Assembly (NCBI GenBank): GCA_035604415.1 | Contig: DATNIN010000068.1 | Coordinates: 6,102 to 70,101 of the forward strand | DNA from: Candidatus Acidiferrales bacterium | GTDB lineage: Bacteria > Acidobacteriota > Terriglobia > Acidiferrales > UBA7541 | DNA: 64,000 nucleotides | Direction: 5' to 3' | In this document: positions 1,877 through 53,139 of the stretch, one piece after another | Position numbering within the stretch: position 1 is the stretch's first letter | Layout: each line of letters opens with the position of its first letter | Program-made: the position numbers and the translations under genes | The notes under the pieces: generated by a model | Told to the model about the DNA's origin: nothing | Databases searched by the model: none | The model's input: the letters and a program-made list of their open reading frames with translations, nothing else

Positions 1877-2287
1877 ATGAAGGTTAACAGACGAAACCTG
1901 CTGTCGTTGCTGGGTATGTCTCCGGCGCTTCTGGCGGGCTCGCAGGTGGAGGCGGACCAAAAGAAAAAAGGCGCGCACAGCGGCGCGGGAAGCGAGCCGA
2001 AGATTTTGGCGGTTAGTCCAAAAGGCACTCCGCCGGCTATACAGCTCTATTCGATGGCTCCTCGCGCCAGCTCCCTCGACGGGAAGACCATCTACGTGGT
2101 CGACGCCACTAGTTTCCTTGGCAGCGAGACGCTCCTGAAGAAAATGCAGGCCTGGTTTCAGCAGAACATGCCCGGCGTCAAGACCGTCTTCCGCAAAAAG
2201 GCCGGCGGATATGCCGAGGATGACCCGAAGCTCTGGGCGGAAATCAAGGCAAACGCCTACGCGACTGTTATGGCCATTGGGCATTGA
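1877..2287 (+). CDS. Tat-signal protein segment ending at in-frame TGA (possible N-terminal part of a UxxC selenoprotein)
   Basis: Starts MKVNRRNLLSLLGMSPALLAGSQVEA, a twin-arginine-type signal. The ORF ends ...AIGH-TGA and continues in the same frame into the next ORF. Confidence 0.6.
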   Translation: MKVNRRNLLSLLGMSPALLAGSQVEADQKKKGAHSGAGSEPKILAVSPKGTPPAIQLYSMAPRASSLDGKTIYVVDATSFLGSETLLKKMQAWFQQNMPGVKTVFRKKAGGYAEDDPKLWAEIKANAYATVMAIGH

Positions 2288-2308
2288 GGAGGCTGCTCCC
2301 CAGCGACC

Positions 2309-3655
2309 GTGAGTCACTGCGTAACGATGGAGAAGATGGGCGTCCCTGCAATTCCGATGTGCACCAGGGCCTACACGGAATTGGCGAACCTCACCGCGGC
2401 AAGGGATGGCATGCCGCACTTGCGTCAAGTGTTTACTCCTCACCCTGTCGGGGGCAAGACAGACGCGGAGCTCGCCGCATATCTGGTAAATCCCGACCCG
2501 GTATCGGGAAAGCAAATCATGAAGGAGATCATCGACGACCTGACCGTGCCGCTTTCGGCGGACGAGATGAAGACCGGGATGCAATCCATCGCGGCAGGGG
2601 CGGCTACCTTCGGTCCGGATACCGCGGATAACCTGCAAGAAATCTTCATGAATAATGGAATGACGGATTACTTGCCGATCGTCACTCCCACGGAAGAGAA
2701 AGTGGACGCGATGCTCAAGGGGACGAGCCACAGTCCCGACGAAGTGCTCAGGACACCGGTCCAAGGTGTGGGTTATACGTCCGCGCGGTGGGGGTACACG
2801 GTGAGGCAGGTCGCTGTGAACGCGGTGATGGCGGGATGCAGGCCGGAATTTTTTCCGGTGGTGCTTGCCATGGCGTCTGTGGGCCCATTGGGGCTCTTCG
2901 GCTCCACCACGTCGTCGAGCACCTCAATCGTGATCAACGGCCCGATCCGCGACAAGCTCAACATGAATTACGGTCTCGGCGCGCTCAGCCCCTTCGCCCA
3001 GTCCAACGCCACCATTGGGCGCTCGTGGACGTTGATGGGCAAGAACCTCACCAACGGCGGTATACCCGGCGACACCTATCAAGGCGGCCAGGGAAACAAT
3101 TTGGACTACAACAACCTCGTGATCGCGGAGGACGAGAAGAACAGCCCATGGACTCCCCTTCACGTGCAGTTCGGATTCAAACCCGAGGAAAACGTCGTCA
3201 GCATATTCGGCGGACCGGACATTCGCCAGGGTCACGGCGCGAGGGGCGCGGGAGCCGAAATTGCGATGTTCGACGAGCAGATCAGCTTCATGTGCCAATC
3301 CATGGTGGGCGGGTCGGGTGCGCTCGTTATTTGCGATCCGCTGGTGGCGAAGCGTCTGGTGGAACAGGGATACGACACCAAGGAGAAGCTCACCGAATGG
3401 GTATTCAAGAAGACGCAGCGCACGGTGAAGGATTTTCGGGAGTCCTTCCTGGCCTCTTTTCATTTGTATCCGCTCGCGCTGCAAGGCAGAGAGCCCTACG
3501 CGACTTGGTACAAGCTTCCGGACGATGCGATGATCCCGTTCTTCGTCTCAGCGAAACAGATTAACTTCGTCGTTTGCGGCGGCCAGGCCAATGCCTTTTT
3601 CCAGGTGGCGAACATGAGCCACGGCAGAAGCGCCTCGATCGACAAGTGGATGTAG
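2309..3655 (+). CDS. Conserved protein of unknown function (possible C-terminal part of the same readthrough protein)
   Basis: 448-aa ORF in the same frame as 1877-2287. The GTG start has no well-spaced Shine-Dalgarno: GGAGG lies 16 nt upstream. Coding-like composition throughout. Confidence 0.65.
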   Translation: MSHCVTMEKMGVPAIPMCTRAYTELANLTAARDGMPHLRQVFTPHPVGGKTDAELAAYLVNPDPVSGKQIMKEIIDDLTVPLSADEMKTGMQSIAAGAATFGPDTADNLQEIFMNNGMTDYLPIVTPTEEKVDAMLKGTSHSPDEVLRTPVQGVGYTSARWGYTVRQVAVNAVMAGCRPEFFPVVLAMASVGPLGLFGSTTSSSTSIVINGPIRDKLNMNYGLGALSPFAQSNATIGRSWTLMGKNLTNGGIPGDTYQGGQGNNLDYNNLVIAEDEKNSPWTPLHVQFGFKPEENVVSIFGGPDIRQGHGARGAGAEIAMFDEQISFMCQSMVGGSGALVICDPLVAKRLVEQGYDTKEKLTEWVFKKTQRTVKDFRESFLASFHLYPLALQGREPYATWYKLPDDAMIPFFVSAKQINFVVCGGQANAFFQVANMSHGRSASIDKWM

Positions 3656-8553: not shown

Positions 8554-8819
8554 TCGGATTCCACCGAGCTTTCATCGCGGGACGACATGCTGGCGATCGG
8601 CCGAGTCCCGCGGCTGAGCCGATCAAGATGGTTGGACACCATCACTTCCGGATCACGTCAGAAACCGATTACTGGCGGAATATATACCCTTCCCGTAGCC
8701 CGTGTGACCGGAGTCTCTCCCAACCTTCGAGCCCAAGATAGCTCCCGGAACTGGCGGCGGCAATGTTACCGAAGTACCACACGGACTAATCTTTCGGCGG
8801 CACGCTCTGAGGAACAGCG

Positions 8820-9650
8820 CTAATCGAGGTATTTTACGAAGACGACTTCGTTTTGCGCTTCGTTGTAGAGGAGTTCGTCCACGTTCGCCTTCACGAGCAG
8901 CAATCCGAATCCCCCCGGGCGCAATCCCTTCTTTTCGCGTATTTGGCCGTGTTTCGTGGGTTCGTCGGCATGCGCGATCGCGGCGTGGTCGAGCCCGGCG
9001 AACTTGAATCCGGCGCCCGGATCGGCGATGCGATACAGCACCATGCGCTTTGCGCGCAGGTGCGAGATGCGGACCCGGCGCTTGGGATCGAGTTTTCCGC
9101 CCCATTCGATCGCGTTCATCAACAGCTCGTGGAACGCCTGCCCGACCGCGTTGCGCACGTCCTCGGGAAGCCCCGTGTCGAGCTGTATCAGAAACGCTTC
9201 CAGGCGTTCGGCCGCCTCCAGCGAGCATGGGACCAGCAGCTCCACCCACTCCGGACGCGCGGAAACCACCTCGATCGGCGGCACGCGCGTTTTCTTCGCG
9301 AGCGATTCCCGCACCAGCGACACCAGCTCGTCCCGCCCGACCGGCTTCGTAATATGGTGATGCGCGTGCTCCCGGATCGAAGAAAGAAGCGTTTGCGGGG
9401 TATCGTCGGACGTCAGCACTATCACTTTCGGGCGTGACCGGATCCCGCGCATCTCCGCGAGCACTTCCATGCCGTTCATGCGCGGCATCCACACGTCGAG
9501 CAGGACGAGGTCGAATTTCGTTTTCTGGAGTTGCTTCCAGGCGGCGCGGCCGTCGGACGCCGTGGACACCGCGAATTTCTCGGCGCGCAGAATCTGCGCA
9601 AGCCACTGCCGGGTCGTGCGGTCATCGTCCGCCACCAAGATGCGCTTCAT
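8820..9650 (-). CDS. Response regulator receiver fused to a SpoIIAB-like (HATPase_c_2) ATP-binding domain
   Basis: N-terminal REC (ILVADDD..., DLVLLDVWMPRMNG). The C-terminus (FHELLMNAIEWGG..., IADPGAGF) resembles anti-sigma-factor-type Ser kinases. Confidence 0.8.
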   Translation of the reverse strand: MKRILVADDDRTTRQWLAQILRAEKFAVSTASDGRAAWKQLQKTKFDLVLLDVWMPRMNGMEVLAEMRGIRSRPKVIVLTSDDTPQTLLSSIREHAHHHITKPVGRDELVSLVRESLAKKTRVPPIEVVSARPEWVELLVPCSLEAAERLEAFLIQLDTGLPEDVRNAVGQAFHELLMNAIEWGGKLDPKRRVRISHLRAKRMVLYRIADPGAGFKFAGLDHAAIAHADEPTKHGQIREKKGLRPGGFGLLLVKANVDELLYNEAQNEVVFVKYLD

Positions 9651-9923
9651 CGCTGCCTCCGCGGTAAAGCGTGCGAGCGGCGCCGCGCTTCCGGCGCAGC
9701 GTTTCGCCCGTTCGATCTACTACAAGCCGGAATGTGGACCGCAGTTCATCCGGCCCCAACGAGTGTAACCCCCTCAGCGGGTGTTTCCACGCCCCTCAAT
9801 CGAACGCGCTACGCAGGCGTAATGGCCGCTGTTGCCATCGCACCCGCATCGCGGCACAATGTCGTGCCTCGCTCGAAGTGCATTTGCCTGTCGAGCCATG
9901 GCCAGGTCTCTCGCGGAGGGCCG

Positions 9924-11045
9924 ATGAGAAAATCCATGCTGTTGATCGCGGGGGCTCTTGTGCTGATATCCCTCAGCCTACCTCCCGCCTCATTGGAGGC
10001 GCAAACCAGCAGCAACCCGTCCGCCCCCGCCTCAAGACCGCGGCCGCGCCCCTGGAAGTTCGCGGCTTCAGGAGATTCACGCAACTGCGGCGACGTCGTG
10101 ATGCCGGGAATCGCCGCCGGTGTAAAGCAGAGCGGGGCGATCTTCTACTGGCACCTCGGCGATTTTCGCAAGATCAGCGAGGTAGACGAAGACATTGCGC
10201 ACCAGCCCGAGCATCTCTCCGCGCCGCTCGCCTTGCCGGACTATCAGGCGCTCGCCTGGAAGGATTTTATCGACAGCCAGATCGCGCCGTTCGGAGCGCT
10301 TCGCGTGTATCTTGGAATCGGCAACCATGAAACCGTCGCTCCGAAGACGCAGGCGGAGTTCGCAGTCCAGTTCGCCCGGTGGATCGACGCTCCGAATCTG
10401 CGCGCGCAGCGGTTGCAGGACGATCCTACCGATCGCCAGCCCAAGACGTACTATCACTGGTCGGCGGGCGGCGTGGACTTCATCAATCTCGACAACTCCT
10501 CGCAGAATCAGTTTGATCAGCCGCAAATCGATTGGTTTGAGAAGACTCTGGCCTCCGACTCTTCCAGCAGCCGGATTCGCGCGATTGTCGTGGGCATGCA
10601 CGAAGCGCTCCCCGAAAGCATCTCGAAGGATCACAGCATGAATCAATCGCCCGGCGGCACCGATACGGGCCGCCGCGTGTACGCCGATCTCCTCCAGGCT
10701 CAAAACACGGCGCACAAGCACGTGTACGTACTCGCCAGCCATTCGCACTACTTCATGGATGGCATCTTCAACACCGATTACTGGCGCGCGCACGGCGGCG
10801 TCCTGCCCGGATGGATTGTCGGGACGGCCGGGGCGGAGCGCTATAGATTGCCGTTGGAGAAAAGCTCCGCGCATGCAGCACTGACCAACGCCTATGGTTT
10901 CCTCACCGGCGCGGTGCATCCCGATGGTCAGATTGATTTCGATTTCCAGCAGATGAGCGAGTCCGACGTCCCGGCCGCGGTCAGCGAACGCTACACGCCG
11001 GAATTCGTACACTGGTGCTTCGCGCAGAATTCGCAAGCGCAGTAG
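9924..11045 (+). CDS. Secreted metallophosphoesterase (calcineurin-like)
   Basis: Start chosen at MRKSMLLIAGALVLISL (signal peptide). Contains GDSRNCGD, WHLGDF and GIGNHE motifs. Confidence 0.8.
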   Translation: MRKSMLLIAGALVLISLSLPPASLEAQTSSNPSAPASRPRPRPWKFAASGDSRNCGDVVMPGIAAGVKQSGAIFYWHLGDFRKISEVDEDIAHQPEHLSAPLALPDYQALAWKDFIDSQIAPFGALRVYLGIGNHETVAPKTQAEFAVQFARWIDAPNLRAQRLQDDPTDRQPKTYYHWSAGGVDFINLDNSSQNQFDQPQIDWFEKTLASDSSSSRIRAIVVGMHEALPESISKDHSMNQSPGGTDTGRRVYADLLQAQNTAHKHVYVLASHSHYFMDGIFNTDYWRAHGGVLPGWIVGTAGAERYRLPLEKSSAHAALTNAYGFLTGAVHPDGQIDFDFQQMSESDVPAAVSERYTPEFVHWCFAQNSQAQ

Positions 11046-51756: not shown

Positions 51757-52434
51757 ATGGTTATCACCGAAATCTTCAAATCCATTCAGGGAGAAGGCAC
51801 CCGCGCGGGATTGCCCTGCATCTTCATGCGGCTCACCGGCTGCAACCTGCGCTGCATGTGGTGCGATACAGCGTACGCATTCCATGGGGGCACGAAATAC
51901 AGCGTCGCCGAAATTCTGGAGCGGGTGCGCTCGCTCGCCGGAGAGGGAGCTGGACGGATTGCGCTCGTGGAGATCACCGGCGGCGAACCGCTGCTCCAGC
52001 CTGAAACGCCCGTGCTGGCTGAGAAACTTCTCGCCGCGGGCTATACGGTGATGATCGAAACGAGCGGGGAGCGCTTCGTCGGCACGCTGCCGCGCGAGGT
52101 GATCAAGATCGTGGATGTGAAGTGCCCCGACTCGGGCGAAGCGGACACATTCGATACGGCCAACCTCGACGCCGTGGACCGCAAAGACGAAATCAAGTTT
52201 GTGATTGCGAGCCGGCGGGACTATGATTTTGCGCGCGATTTCACGGCACGCCATCGCCTCGCCGAGCGGGTCCATCAAGTGCTGTTTTCTCCGGTCTTCG
52301 CGGACCCGGAGGGGCGCTGGCCCGGGTTGAACGCGCGGGAAATGGCGGAATGGATCCTGGCCGACGGGCTGCCCGTGCGGCTCGGCCTGCAGTTGCACAA
52401 GTTCATCTGGGACCCGGCGATGAAGGGGGTTTGA
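51757..52434 (+). CDS. queE: 7-carboxy-7-deazaguanine synthase (radical SAM)
   Basis: EIFKSIQGEG...RLTGCNLRCMWCDT. Confidence 0.9.
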   Translation: MVITEIFKSIQGEGTRAGLPCIFMRLTGCNLRCMWCDTAYAFHGGTKYSVAEILERVRSLAGEGAGRIALVEITGGEPLLQPETPVLAEKLLAAGYTVMIETSGERFVGTLPREVIKIVDVKCPDSGEADTFDTANLDAVDRKDEIKFVIASRRDYDFARDFTARHRLAERVHQVLFSPVFADPEGRWPGLNAREMAEWILADGLPVRLGLQLHKFIWDPAMKGV

Positions 52435-52443
52435 GATCGGGCG

Positions 52444-53139
52444 ATGGCGGAGAAACCCAAGGCGGTCGTGCTGTTGAGCGGGGGCATGGACTCCTGCGTG
52501 ACGACCGCGATCGCGAACCAGACCCACCGCCTCGCTCTATTGCACGCGAGTTATGGGCAGAGGACGGAGCAGCGGGAACGGCGCGCGTTCGAAGCGATTG
52601 CGGATTTCTACGGGGTGCGGGAGGGGCTGGTGGTAAGGTTCGATGCCTTCGCACAGATCGGAGGCTCGGCGCTGACCGACGAGCGCATTTCGGTGCCCGA
52701 ATCGGGCGAAGCGCTTGCGCCGCACAGCGGGATTCCGATTACGTACGTGCCCTTCCGCAACGCTCACTTTCTTTCGGCGGCAGTCAGCTGGGCGGAAGTG
52801 ATCGGCGCGACGGCTATCTTCATTGGTGCGGTGGCGGAAGATAGTTCAGGCTATCCCGATTGCCGGCCGGAGTACTATCGCGCCTTCGAGGCGCTGATTC
52901 GCGAGGGAACGCGCCCGGAAACGCACATTGAAATCGTGACGCCGGTGATCGCGATGCGCAAGAGCGAAATCGTTCGCCGCGGCGCGGAACTCGGTGCGCC
53001 GCTGGACCGGACGTGGTCGTGCTATCAATTTGAGGACGAAGCGTGCGGGACGTGCGATAGTTGCCGGCTGCGCCTCAAGGCGTTTGCCGAGGCGGAGATG
53101 CGCGACCCTATCGCCTATCGGACGCGAGTTGCGCAATAA
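52444..53139 (+). CDS. queC: 7-cyano-7-deazaguanine synthase
   Basis: VVLLSGGMDS PP-loop and a C-terminal Cys cluster CYQFEDEACGTCDSC. Confidence 0.95.
   Translation: MAEKPKAVVLLSGGMDSCVTTAIANQTHRLALLHASYGQRTEQRERRAFEAIADFYGVREGLVVRFDAFAQIGGSALTDERISVPESGEALAPHSGIPITYVPFRNAHFLSAAVSWAEVIGATAIFIGAVAEDSSGYPDCRPEYYRAFEALIREGTRPETHIEIVTPVIAMRKSEIVRRGAELGAPLDRTWSCYQFEDEACGTCDSCRLRLKAFAEAEMRDPIAYRTRVAQ

Follow-up and report, generated by a model that had tools for sequence, protein, structure and literature searches.

UGSC selenoproteins and the long-form gene at 1877-3655

Selenoproteins of the UGSC family have been known since 2005-2008. The UGSC-containing family was reported in metagenomes of the Sargasso Sea and of Global Ocean Sampling (GOS), where it is among the most abundant and where 255 selenocysteine (Sec; U in motifs) forms were counted beside 21 cysteine forms (PMC2398784), and a current review lists it as functionally uncharacterized (PMC13188914). 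Here we describe a long-form relative encoded at positions 1877-3655 of a 64,000-nucleotide stretch of a Candidatus Acidiferrales bacterium genome (contig DATNIN010000068.1), the whole of which is called the window below. Two Escherichia coli systems provide further points of comparison. FdnG and FdoG are periplasmic formate dehydrogenases that are exported by the twin-arginine (Tat) route and carry an in-frame UGA, decoded as Sec, with a hairpin directly 3' of it, while the fdhF-type selenocysteine insertion sequence (SECIS) contains a minimal 17-nt SelB-binding stem-loop located 11 nt after the UGA.

It is highly likely, in our view, that 1877-3655 constitutes one gene, which encodes a periplasmic, long-form UGSC-family selenoprotein of 592 residues and in which an in-frame UGA is decoded as Sec. 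The selenoprotein call itself is not new; since the family is published, Pfam and NCBIfam models of it exist, and several close relatives already carry the NCBI name 'UGSC family (seleno)protein', the gene is a new and mis-annotated member of an established family. What is new from the present analysis is the definition of a candidate SECIS element, the Tat-type leader, the expansion of paralogs and the link to a quinoprotein and a cytochrome c. The features of the gene are as follows.

1877-3655, + strand: complete gene of the predicted selenoprotein, 592 codons plus stop, codon 137 being UGA (from the frame, the UGSC match, the homolog alignment and the conservation of the TGA)
1861-1866, + strand: Shine-Dalgarno sequence AGGAGG, 10 nt before the ATG at 1877, read directly from the sequence
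1877-1954, + strand: predicted twin-arginine (Tat-type) signal peptide MKVNRRNLLSLLGMSPALLAGSQVEA, with an RR motif conserved in homologs
2018-2479, + strand: UGSC domain, residues 48-201, with the U137-G-G-C140 motif and a conserved H147-C148 (PF24696, E=2e-28; homolog alignment)
2285-2287, + strand: in-frame UGA, predicted Sec codon (codon 137), TGA in 211/216 homologous genes and aligned with Cys
2300-2323, + strand: 24-nt near-invariant block including the hairpin and its 3' flank C-R-U-A (third-position entropy, column counts)
2301-2319, + strand: candidate bacterial SECIS hairpin CAG-C-GAC[CGUGA]GUC-A-CUG, 19 nt, 13 nt after the UGA (RNAalifold; synonymous-site constraint)
2483-3652, + strand: C-terminal domain of about 390 amino acids, function unassigned (no Pfam, NCBIfam or PDB relative; apparently always fused to UGSC)

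A single gene occupies this region. Its frame is opened by the ATG at 1877 and ended by the TAG at 3653-3655, and when coordinates and frame were read again from the sequence, the two open reading frames (ORFs) that the original prediction had joined proved to share one frame and to be separated by the TGA at 2285-2287 alone. Reading through this codon gives a product of 592 residues with the junction ...VMAIGH-U-GGCSPATVSHCVTMEKMGVPAIPM..., or, in a longer excerpt, ...AYATVMAIGH-U-GGCSPATVSHCVTMEKMGVPA.... The prediction had also denied the downstream ORF a usable Shine-Dalgarno sequence, which is correct: the GGAGG at 2288-2292 encodes the two glycines after the UGA and lies 16 nt before the GTG at 2309, too distant to serve in that role. 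Moreover, at position +4 (counted, as below, from the U of the UGA), which falls within the GGAGG, 105 of the 160 distinct Sec-type sequences have A; the element is thus not conserved and does not serve a second gene as its ribosome-binding site. The public record holds a 439-amino-acid 'hypothetical protein VN822_13395' (P0001) from a Candidatus Acidoferrales metagenome-assembled genome (MAG), which corresponds to window positions 2336-3655 and starts at the ATG at 2336. This annotation leaves out codons 1-136 with the signal peptide, as well as the Sec codon, and essentially all of the Sec-type relatives have been split alike by gene callers. The true product would thus be an exported selenoprotein of 592 residues rather than the 439-residue protein of the public record.

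Conservation of the UGA codon was examined in 80 loci from species-representative genomes (all of them Acidobacteriota/Acidiferrales-type MAGs), in 80 metagenome loci collected with a Cys-type alignment as the query, and in the window, with homologous genes located by motif scan. The codon is TGA in 211 of the 216 homologous genes found in these 160 public loci and the window, and TGC in the other 5; the TGA-bearing paralogs are 62-91% identical. The recurrence of the same codon in 211/216 genes places the junction far beyond chance. In all 14 of the aligned full-length homologs, which are single polypeptides of 578-615 amino acids, a Cys stands opposite the UGA within the motif MAIGH-C-[AGS][GT]-C-[TS]PATV. 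The alignment that the original prediction had proposed as a check therefore came out in its favor. The tetrapeptide is U-G-G-C in the window gene, U-S-T-C, U-S-S-C, U-S-G-C or U-A-G-C in paralogs, and literally UGSC in one relative (L165). TGA is the commonest stop in the window and terminates 12 of its 25 other Pfam-supported genes, which indicates that recoding of the UGA is local and that no genome-wide reassignment has taken place.

Long-form UGSC genes also occur in tandem, with 32 loci carrying two copies, 10 carrying three and 1 carrying four. An in-frame TGA and the frozen hairpin are present in every one of the tandem copies (for example L059, at 4109, 5992 and 7877, and likewise L060, L067, L070 and L080), and single MAGs also hold several unlinked UGSC paralogs. 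The clade is large and strongly dominated by Sec forms, with up to four tandem Sec copies per locus, which implies heavy use of selenium in soil and peat Acidobacteria.

The 592-residue product has a UGSC domain. In profile searches, for which U was replaced by C, Pfam PF24696 (UGSC) matched residues 48-201 with 100.1 bits (cut-off 25; E=2e-28), covering profile positions 5-157 of 172 and running across codon 137, so that the family identity, which the original prediction had suggested, is now borne out by a match that spans the UGA. A search of 5.8 billion proteins returned two kinds of relatives: those 73-100% identical to the window protein are downstream fragments of 432-443 residues, and those 51-63% identical are full-length chains of 578-590 residues. 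With the described UGSC family the window protein shares a homologous alpha/beta domain, the placement of Sec as the first residue of U-x-x-C, and a large excess of Sec over Cys forms (211:5 here, 255:21 in the GOS metagenomes). It differs in its tetrapeptide, which is U-G-G-C and not U-G-S-C, and in its size, since the type represented by the NCBIfam model NF041046 has about 147 residues, whereas the present protein has 592 and adds a Tat-type signal and a 390-amino-acid C-terminal domain. A fusion of UGSC to an unknown domain ('UGSC/Unknown_1') was noted in 2008 (PMC2398784).

The hairpin 3' of the UGA and the decoding of codon 137

Our findings reveal an RNA-level constraint on a hairpin 3' of the UGA that is specific to the Sec forms. 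The RNAalifold consensus of 87 distinct sequences places a hairpin with a 5-nt, GU-containing apical loop at +17 to +35, corresponding to window positions 2301-2319. This hairpin is embedded in a near-invariant block at +16 to +39 whose codons, in the 160 distinct Sec-type sequences, read CCA GCG ACC GUN NGU CAC UGC, followed almost always by the rare codon GUA or AUA. The third positions at +18, +21, +24, +30 and +33 are invariant in 160/160 of these sequences, the sole variable positions of the block are two 3' loop bases (+27 and +28) and +37, and the mean third-position entropy is 0.08 bit within the block as against 1.12 bit outside it. The five Cys-type genes encode the same amino acids through other codons (CCG/CCC/CCT, GCC/GCT/GCG, ACG/ACA/ACC and AGC/GGA/AGT), and in them the hairpin is not formed. 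Because the synonymous sites are frozen in Sec-type genes and vary in Cys-type genes, the constraint operates at the RNA level and goes together with the UGA.

The original prediction had drawn a larger SECIS-like hairpin at 2300-2330, with CCAGCG/CGAUGG as its outer stem. Its expectation of an RNA element after the UGA is upheld by the conserved block. The outer stem, in contrast, has to be abandoned: its 3' arm CGAUGG varies freely between homologs, the minimum free energy fold of the region 2285-2345 is no better than that of shuffles (z = +0.96), and the pairing that is conserved is that of 2301-2319. In comparison with the fdhF-type SECIS, this mini-hairpin is likewise short, comparable in size (19 nt) and in its spacing from the UGA (13 nt downstream), and both have an imperfect stem and G-U in the apical loop; it differs in sequence and loop (CGUNN here), in having no long lower stem, and in matching no Rfam family. 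The likeliest recoding signal would be the 2301-2319 mini-hairpin acting as a bacterial SECIS bound by SelB, and judging from sequence features, the UGA is probably decoded via SelB.

The frozen 24-nt block offers a simple signature by which such genes, together with their SECIS elements, can be searched for. Scanning for this hairpin elsewhere brought up no convincing match. A separate scan of the window for in-frame TGA codons between coding-like segments returned four candidates and missed the target UGA itself, and is hence insensitive. One of these candidates, the TGA at 52432 between the ORFs at 51757-52434 and 52444-53139, has an ATG 9 nt further on; it looks like an ordinary gene boundary and was dropped as a selenoprotein candidate.

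Three other accounts of the TGA have to be weighed against decoding as Sec. TGA is one base change from TGC or TGT, the codons from which a pseudogene with a Cys codon turned into a stop, or a sequencing error with TGC or TGT read as TGA, would have arisen. The same TGA is, however, present in 211 independently assembled genes on more than 150 contigs, with strong protein conservation on both sides of it, and its occurrence in 211/216 homologous genes, paralogs and tandem copies included, excludes both origins for practical purposes, the chance of either being negligible. The gene could alternatively give two products, namely a 136-residue exported fragment and an independent protein of about 440 residues started at the GTG at 2309 or the ATG at 2336, as would suit the public 439-amino-acid entry from 2336 and the Sec-type relatives that gene callers split in the same way. 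Such an arrangement would cut the Pfam UGSC domain in two and leave the downstream part without a signal peptide, yet the Cys-type homologs are single chains, the downstream gene has neither a conserved start codon nor a conserved Shine-Dalgarno sequence, and the frame and the zero-length gap are kept in 211 genes; we judge two products to be very improbable.

The remaining alternative is that the UGA is read through without Sec, by an opal suppressor or a tRNA-Sec-like 'allo-tRNA' that inserts Cys or another residue. Acidobacteria carry allo-tRNAs that have been proposed as nonsense suppressors (PMC5389517), and our searches of the window and related loci found no Sec machinery, both of which speak for this possibility. 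With TGA as the commonest ordinary stop of the window, however, any such suppression would need to be local, and the nucleotide constraint on the hairpin directly downstream, which is loosened in the Cys-type genes, is the hallmark of recoding by SECIS and SelB. UGSC is, in addition, an established Sec family in which Sec forms outnumber Cys forms (PMC2398784). We regard read-through without Sec as improbable, and decoding of the UGA as Sec in a single long-form UGSC gene as the preferred reading.

Several observations nevertheless weigh against this reading, or against the export and redox role that we attach to it. ARAGORN detected no tRNA-Sec in the window, whose only tRNA is a tRNA-Pro, or in the 160 related loci; no selA, selB or selD was recognized among the 30 Pfam-scanned ORFs of the window, which are housekeeping or unrelated genes; and tblastn with SelA, SelB and SelD of E. 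coli returned nothing from the 1.7 Mb of window and loci. In all, these searches covered the window and 170 loci. The Sec machinery is presumably encoded in the source genome. The hairpin is weak, with a folding energy of -4.5 kcal/mol that 32 of 200 shuffles equal or better, and it has no match in Rfam at gathering thresholds, nor at E<=10 around the UGA. No compensatory covariation is seen in its stem among the 160 distinct Sec-type sequences, because the stem never varies. The sole NCBIfam match, NF041046 'UGSC family (seleno)protein', reaches 73.1 bits and thus stays under the equivalog cut-off of 125; the model was made for proteins of about 147 residues, and P0097, a Cys-type relative that NCBI names 'UGSC family (seleno)protein', itself scores just 71.5 bits. 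The N-terminus matched no Tat-signal hidden Markov model (HMM) in Pfam or NCBIfam. Long-form UGSC genes of other phyla lie in unrelated catabolic clusters with tripartite ATP-independent periplasmic (TRAP) or ATP-binding cassette (ABC) transporters, MmgE/PrpD, PGA_cap and GntR, and four distant full-length proteins (P0349, P0375, P0331 and P0358, from L161 and L167-L169) possess both domains with neither Sec nor Cys at the U-x-x-C site. Finally, the functional link to the quinoprotein described below is drawn entirely from gene neighborhood.

Leader, fold and quinoprotein neighborhood

The original prediction had described the N-terminus as twin-arginine-like, and the conservation of its RR leader agrees with that description even though no Tat HMM matched. 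In the leader MKVNRRNLLSLLGMSPALLAGSQVEA, a twin arginine is followed by a core of mild hydrophobicity and by V-E-A, an end of the cleavage type. Among 210 homologous genes, 202 have the motif RRx[ILMV][ILM]x[ILM][ILM]GxSP, always equally far from the Sec codon, and R5, R6 and L9 are nearly invariant among full-length homologs. Since no Tat HMM matched, the assignment is based on inspection of the sequence, from which we infer export by the Tat pathway; the product would be exported in the folded state by means of its twin-arginine signal peptide. FdnG and FdoG are alike in having a twin-arginine signal on a Sec-containing protein and a UGA decoded through an immediate 3' hairpin. They are not homologous to the window protein, however, which has no molybdopterin or Fe-S domain matches and in which the proposed redox center is a U-x-x-C pair and not a metal ligand.

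A structural view is provided by the AlphaFold2 model of P0058, a Cys homolog 63% identical to the window protein (predicted local distance difference test score 80, predicted template modeling score 0.76). The model has three regions, a disordered leader and linker, a UGSC domain of beta-alpha repeats and a well-folded C-terminal domain, and the U/C-x-x-C motif is located at the N-terminus of a helix. A thioredoxin-fold thiol oxidoreductase has been proposed for UGSC (PMC2398784); Foldseek comparison of the P0058 model with the PDB gave weak matches (best E=4e-4, template modeling score <0.2) to flavodoxin-like or IIB-like folds and none to a thioredoxin. Taken together, the PDB profile search and Foldseek found no convincing relative for either domain. 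In the window protein U137-x-x-C140, together with H147-C148, would form a redox center at the start of a helix in the alpha/beta UGSC domain.

Two genes precede the UGSC gene on the same strand, in line with the secreted pyrroloquinoline quinone (PQQ) dehydrogenase and the cytochrome c that the original prediction had placed there.

1-219, + strand: 3' end of a diheme cytochrome c gene, the first of the cytochrome c/quinoprotein/UGSC module (90% identical to the C-terminus of L009:3072-3929)
216-1823, + strand: quinoprotein (PQQ-type) dehydrogenase of the methanol/ethanol family, with a signal peptide of the general secretory (Sec) type (PF01011, E=6e-92)

L009, whose UGSC ortholog is 91% identical, belongs to the complete chromosome OY970264.1. 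The cytochrome c encoded at L009:3072-3929 has 286 amino acids, two Cytochrom_C stretches and a TIGR02603 heme-binding domain. The quinoprotein scores 530 bits to TIGR03075, above the cut-off of 480, and is a near-match to TIGR04528, 'acido-empty-quinoprotein group A', at 536 bits below a cut-off of 650; a literature search for 'acido-empty-quinoprotein' or TIGR04528 found nothing. Quinoproteins of the methanol/ethanol type characteristically have a vicinal disulfide. The window quinoprotein contains just one Cys and lacks the vicinal Cys-Cys pair, as do 59 of 65 full-length adjacent quinoproteins of related loci. The quinoprotein and UGSC genes are separated by 53 nt with no terminator-like site between them.

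This gene neighborhood is conserved. Of the 66 related loci that extend 3 kb or more to either side, 41 have a quinoprotein homolog and 39 the cytochrome c, the module genes occur in at least three different orders, and distinct UGSC paralogs adjoin distinct quinoprotein paralogs (75-92%, about 60% and 35-41% identity). Downstream of the UGSC gene, on the opposite strand, are the unrelated genes ftsH, a phosphoribosyltransferase-domain gene and tilS. Further along the window, the ORFs at 8653-9606 (- strand, 317 amino acids) and 9531-11045 (+ strand, 504 amino acids) have no Pfam match.

On the basis of this neighborhood, the UGSC protein probably serves a redox function in the periplasm that is linked to the quinoprotein and the cytochrome c. 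Our best guess for its function, drawn from the same source, is a selenol/thiol oxidoreductase with a C-terminal domain that binds a substrate or partner. The protein would act as a selenol/thiol redox enzyme in a periplasmic module with the quinoprotein dehydrogenase and the diheme cytochrome c, its U-x-x-C center carrying out the redox chemistry and its C-terminal domain binding the substrate or partner. The linkage to cytochrome c and quinoprotein represents the first concrete functional lead for a family that has been without a known function for about 20 years. A more specific proposal, which we put forward as speculative and on present evidence unlikely, is that the Tat-exported long-form UGSC protein is a dedicated periplasmic redox partner of the acidobacterial quinoproteins without vicinal Cys-Cys, either as a selenenyl-sulfide center supplied in trans or as a terminal reductase fed by the diheme cytochrome c. 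If true, this would be the first function for the UGSC family and would explain the two to four tandem Sec paralogs that are paired with distinct quinoprotein paralogs.

The C-terminal domain and relatives in other phyla

The C-terminal 390 residues have no relative in Pfam, NCBIfam or the PDB by sequence or fold, and a representative search with this domain matched 3494 clusters. Proteins that seemed to contain the domain in 'standalone' form were set aside as gene calls truncated at the Sec codon, since upstream of each lies a UGSC ORF of about 100 amino acids that ends at the UGA, and the domain seems to occur exclusively in fusion with UGSC. The distant relatives without Sec or Cys keep both domains, which suggests that the function of the C-terminal domain may not depend on the redox pair. 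Their N-termini differ as well, with P0358 and P0375 having no N-terminal extension and P0349 and P0331 having a hydrophobic N-terminus that is not of the twin-arginine kind. At a further locus, L170, the site reads U-G-T-V and has no resolving Cys.

A different setting is seen in the Peptococcaceae. Positions 1-8305 of L163/L164 hold a long-form UGSC gene that callers have split into 101 and 434 amino acids, in a cluster with a GrdC/D-like gene, a thioredoxin gene, GrdA (split at its own UGA in L164) and a TRAP transporter. One hint from this arrangement is that, in anaerobes, the Peptococcaceae long-form UGSC protein may fill a protein-B-like place in a Grd-type reductase. The window protein differs from GrdB/PrdB (PF07355) in having no PF07355 match at E<=0.01, and the acidobacterial UGSC protein is predicted to be periplasmic and is unlinked to grdA or trx. 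What the two groups have in common is the U-x-x-C selenoprotein motif and, in the Peptococcaceae cluster, the position of the long-form UGSC gene where the substrate-specific protein B would be expected.

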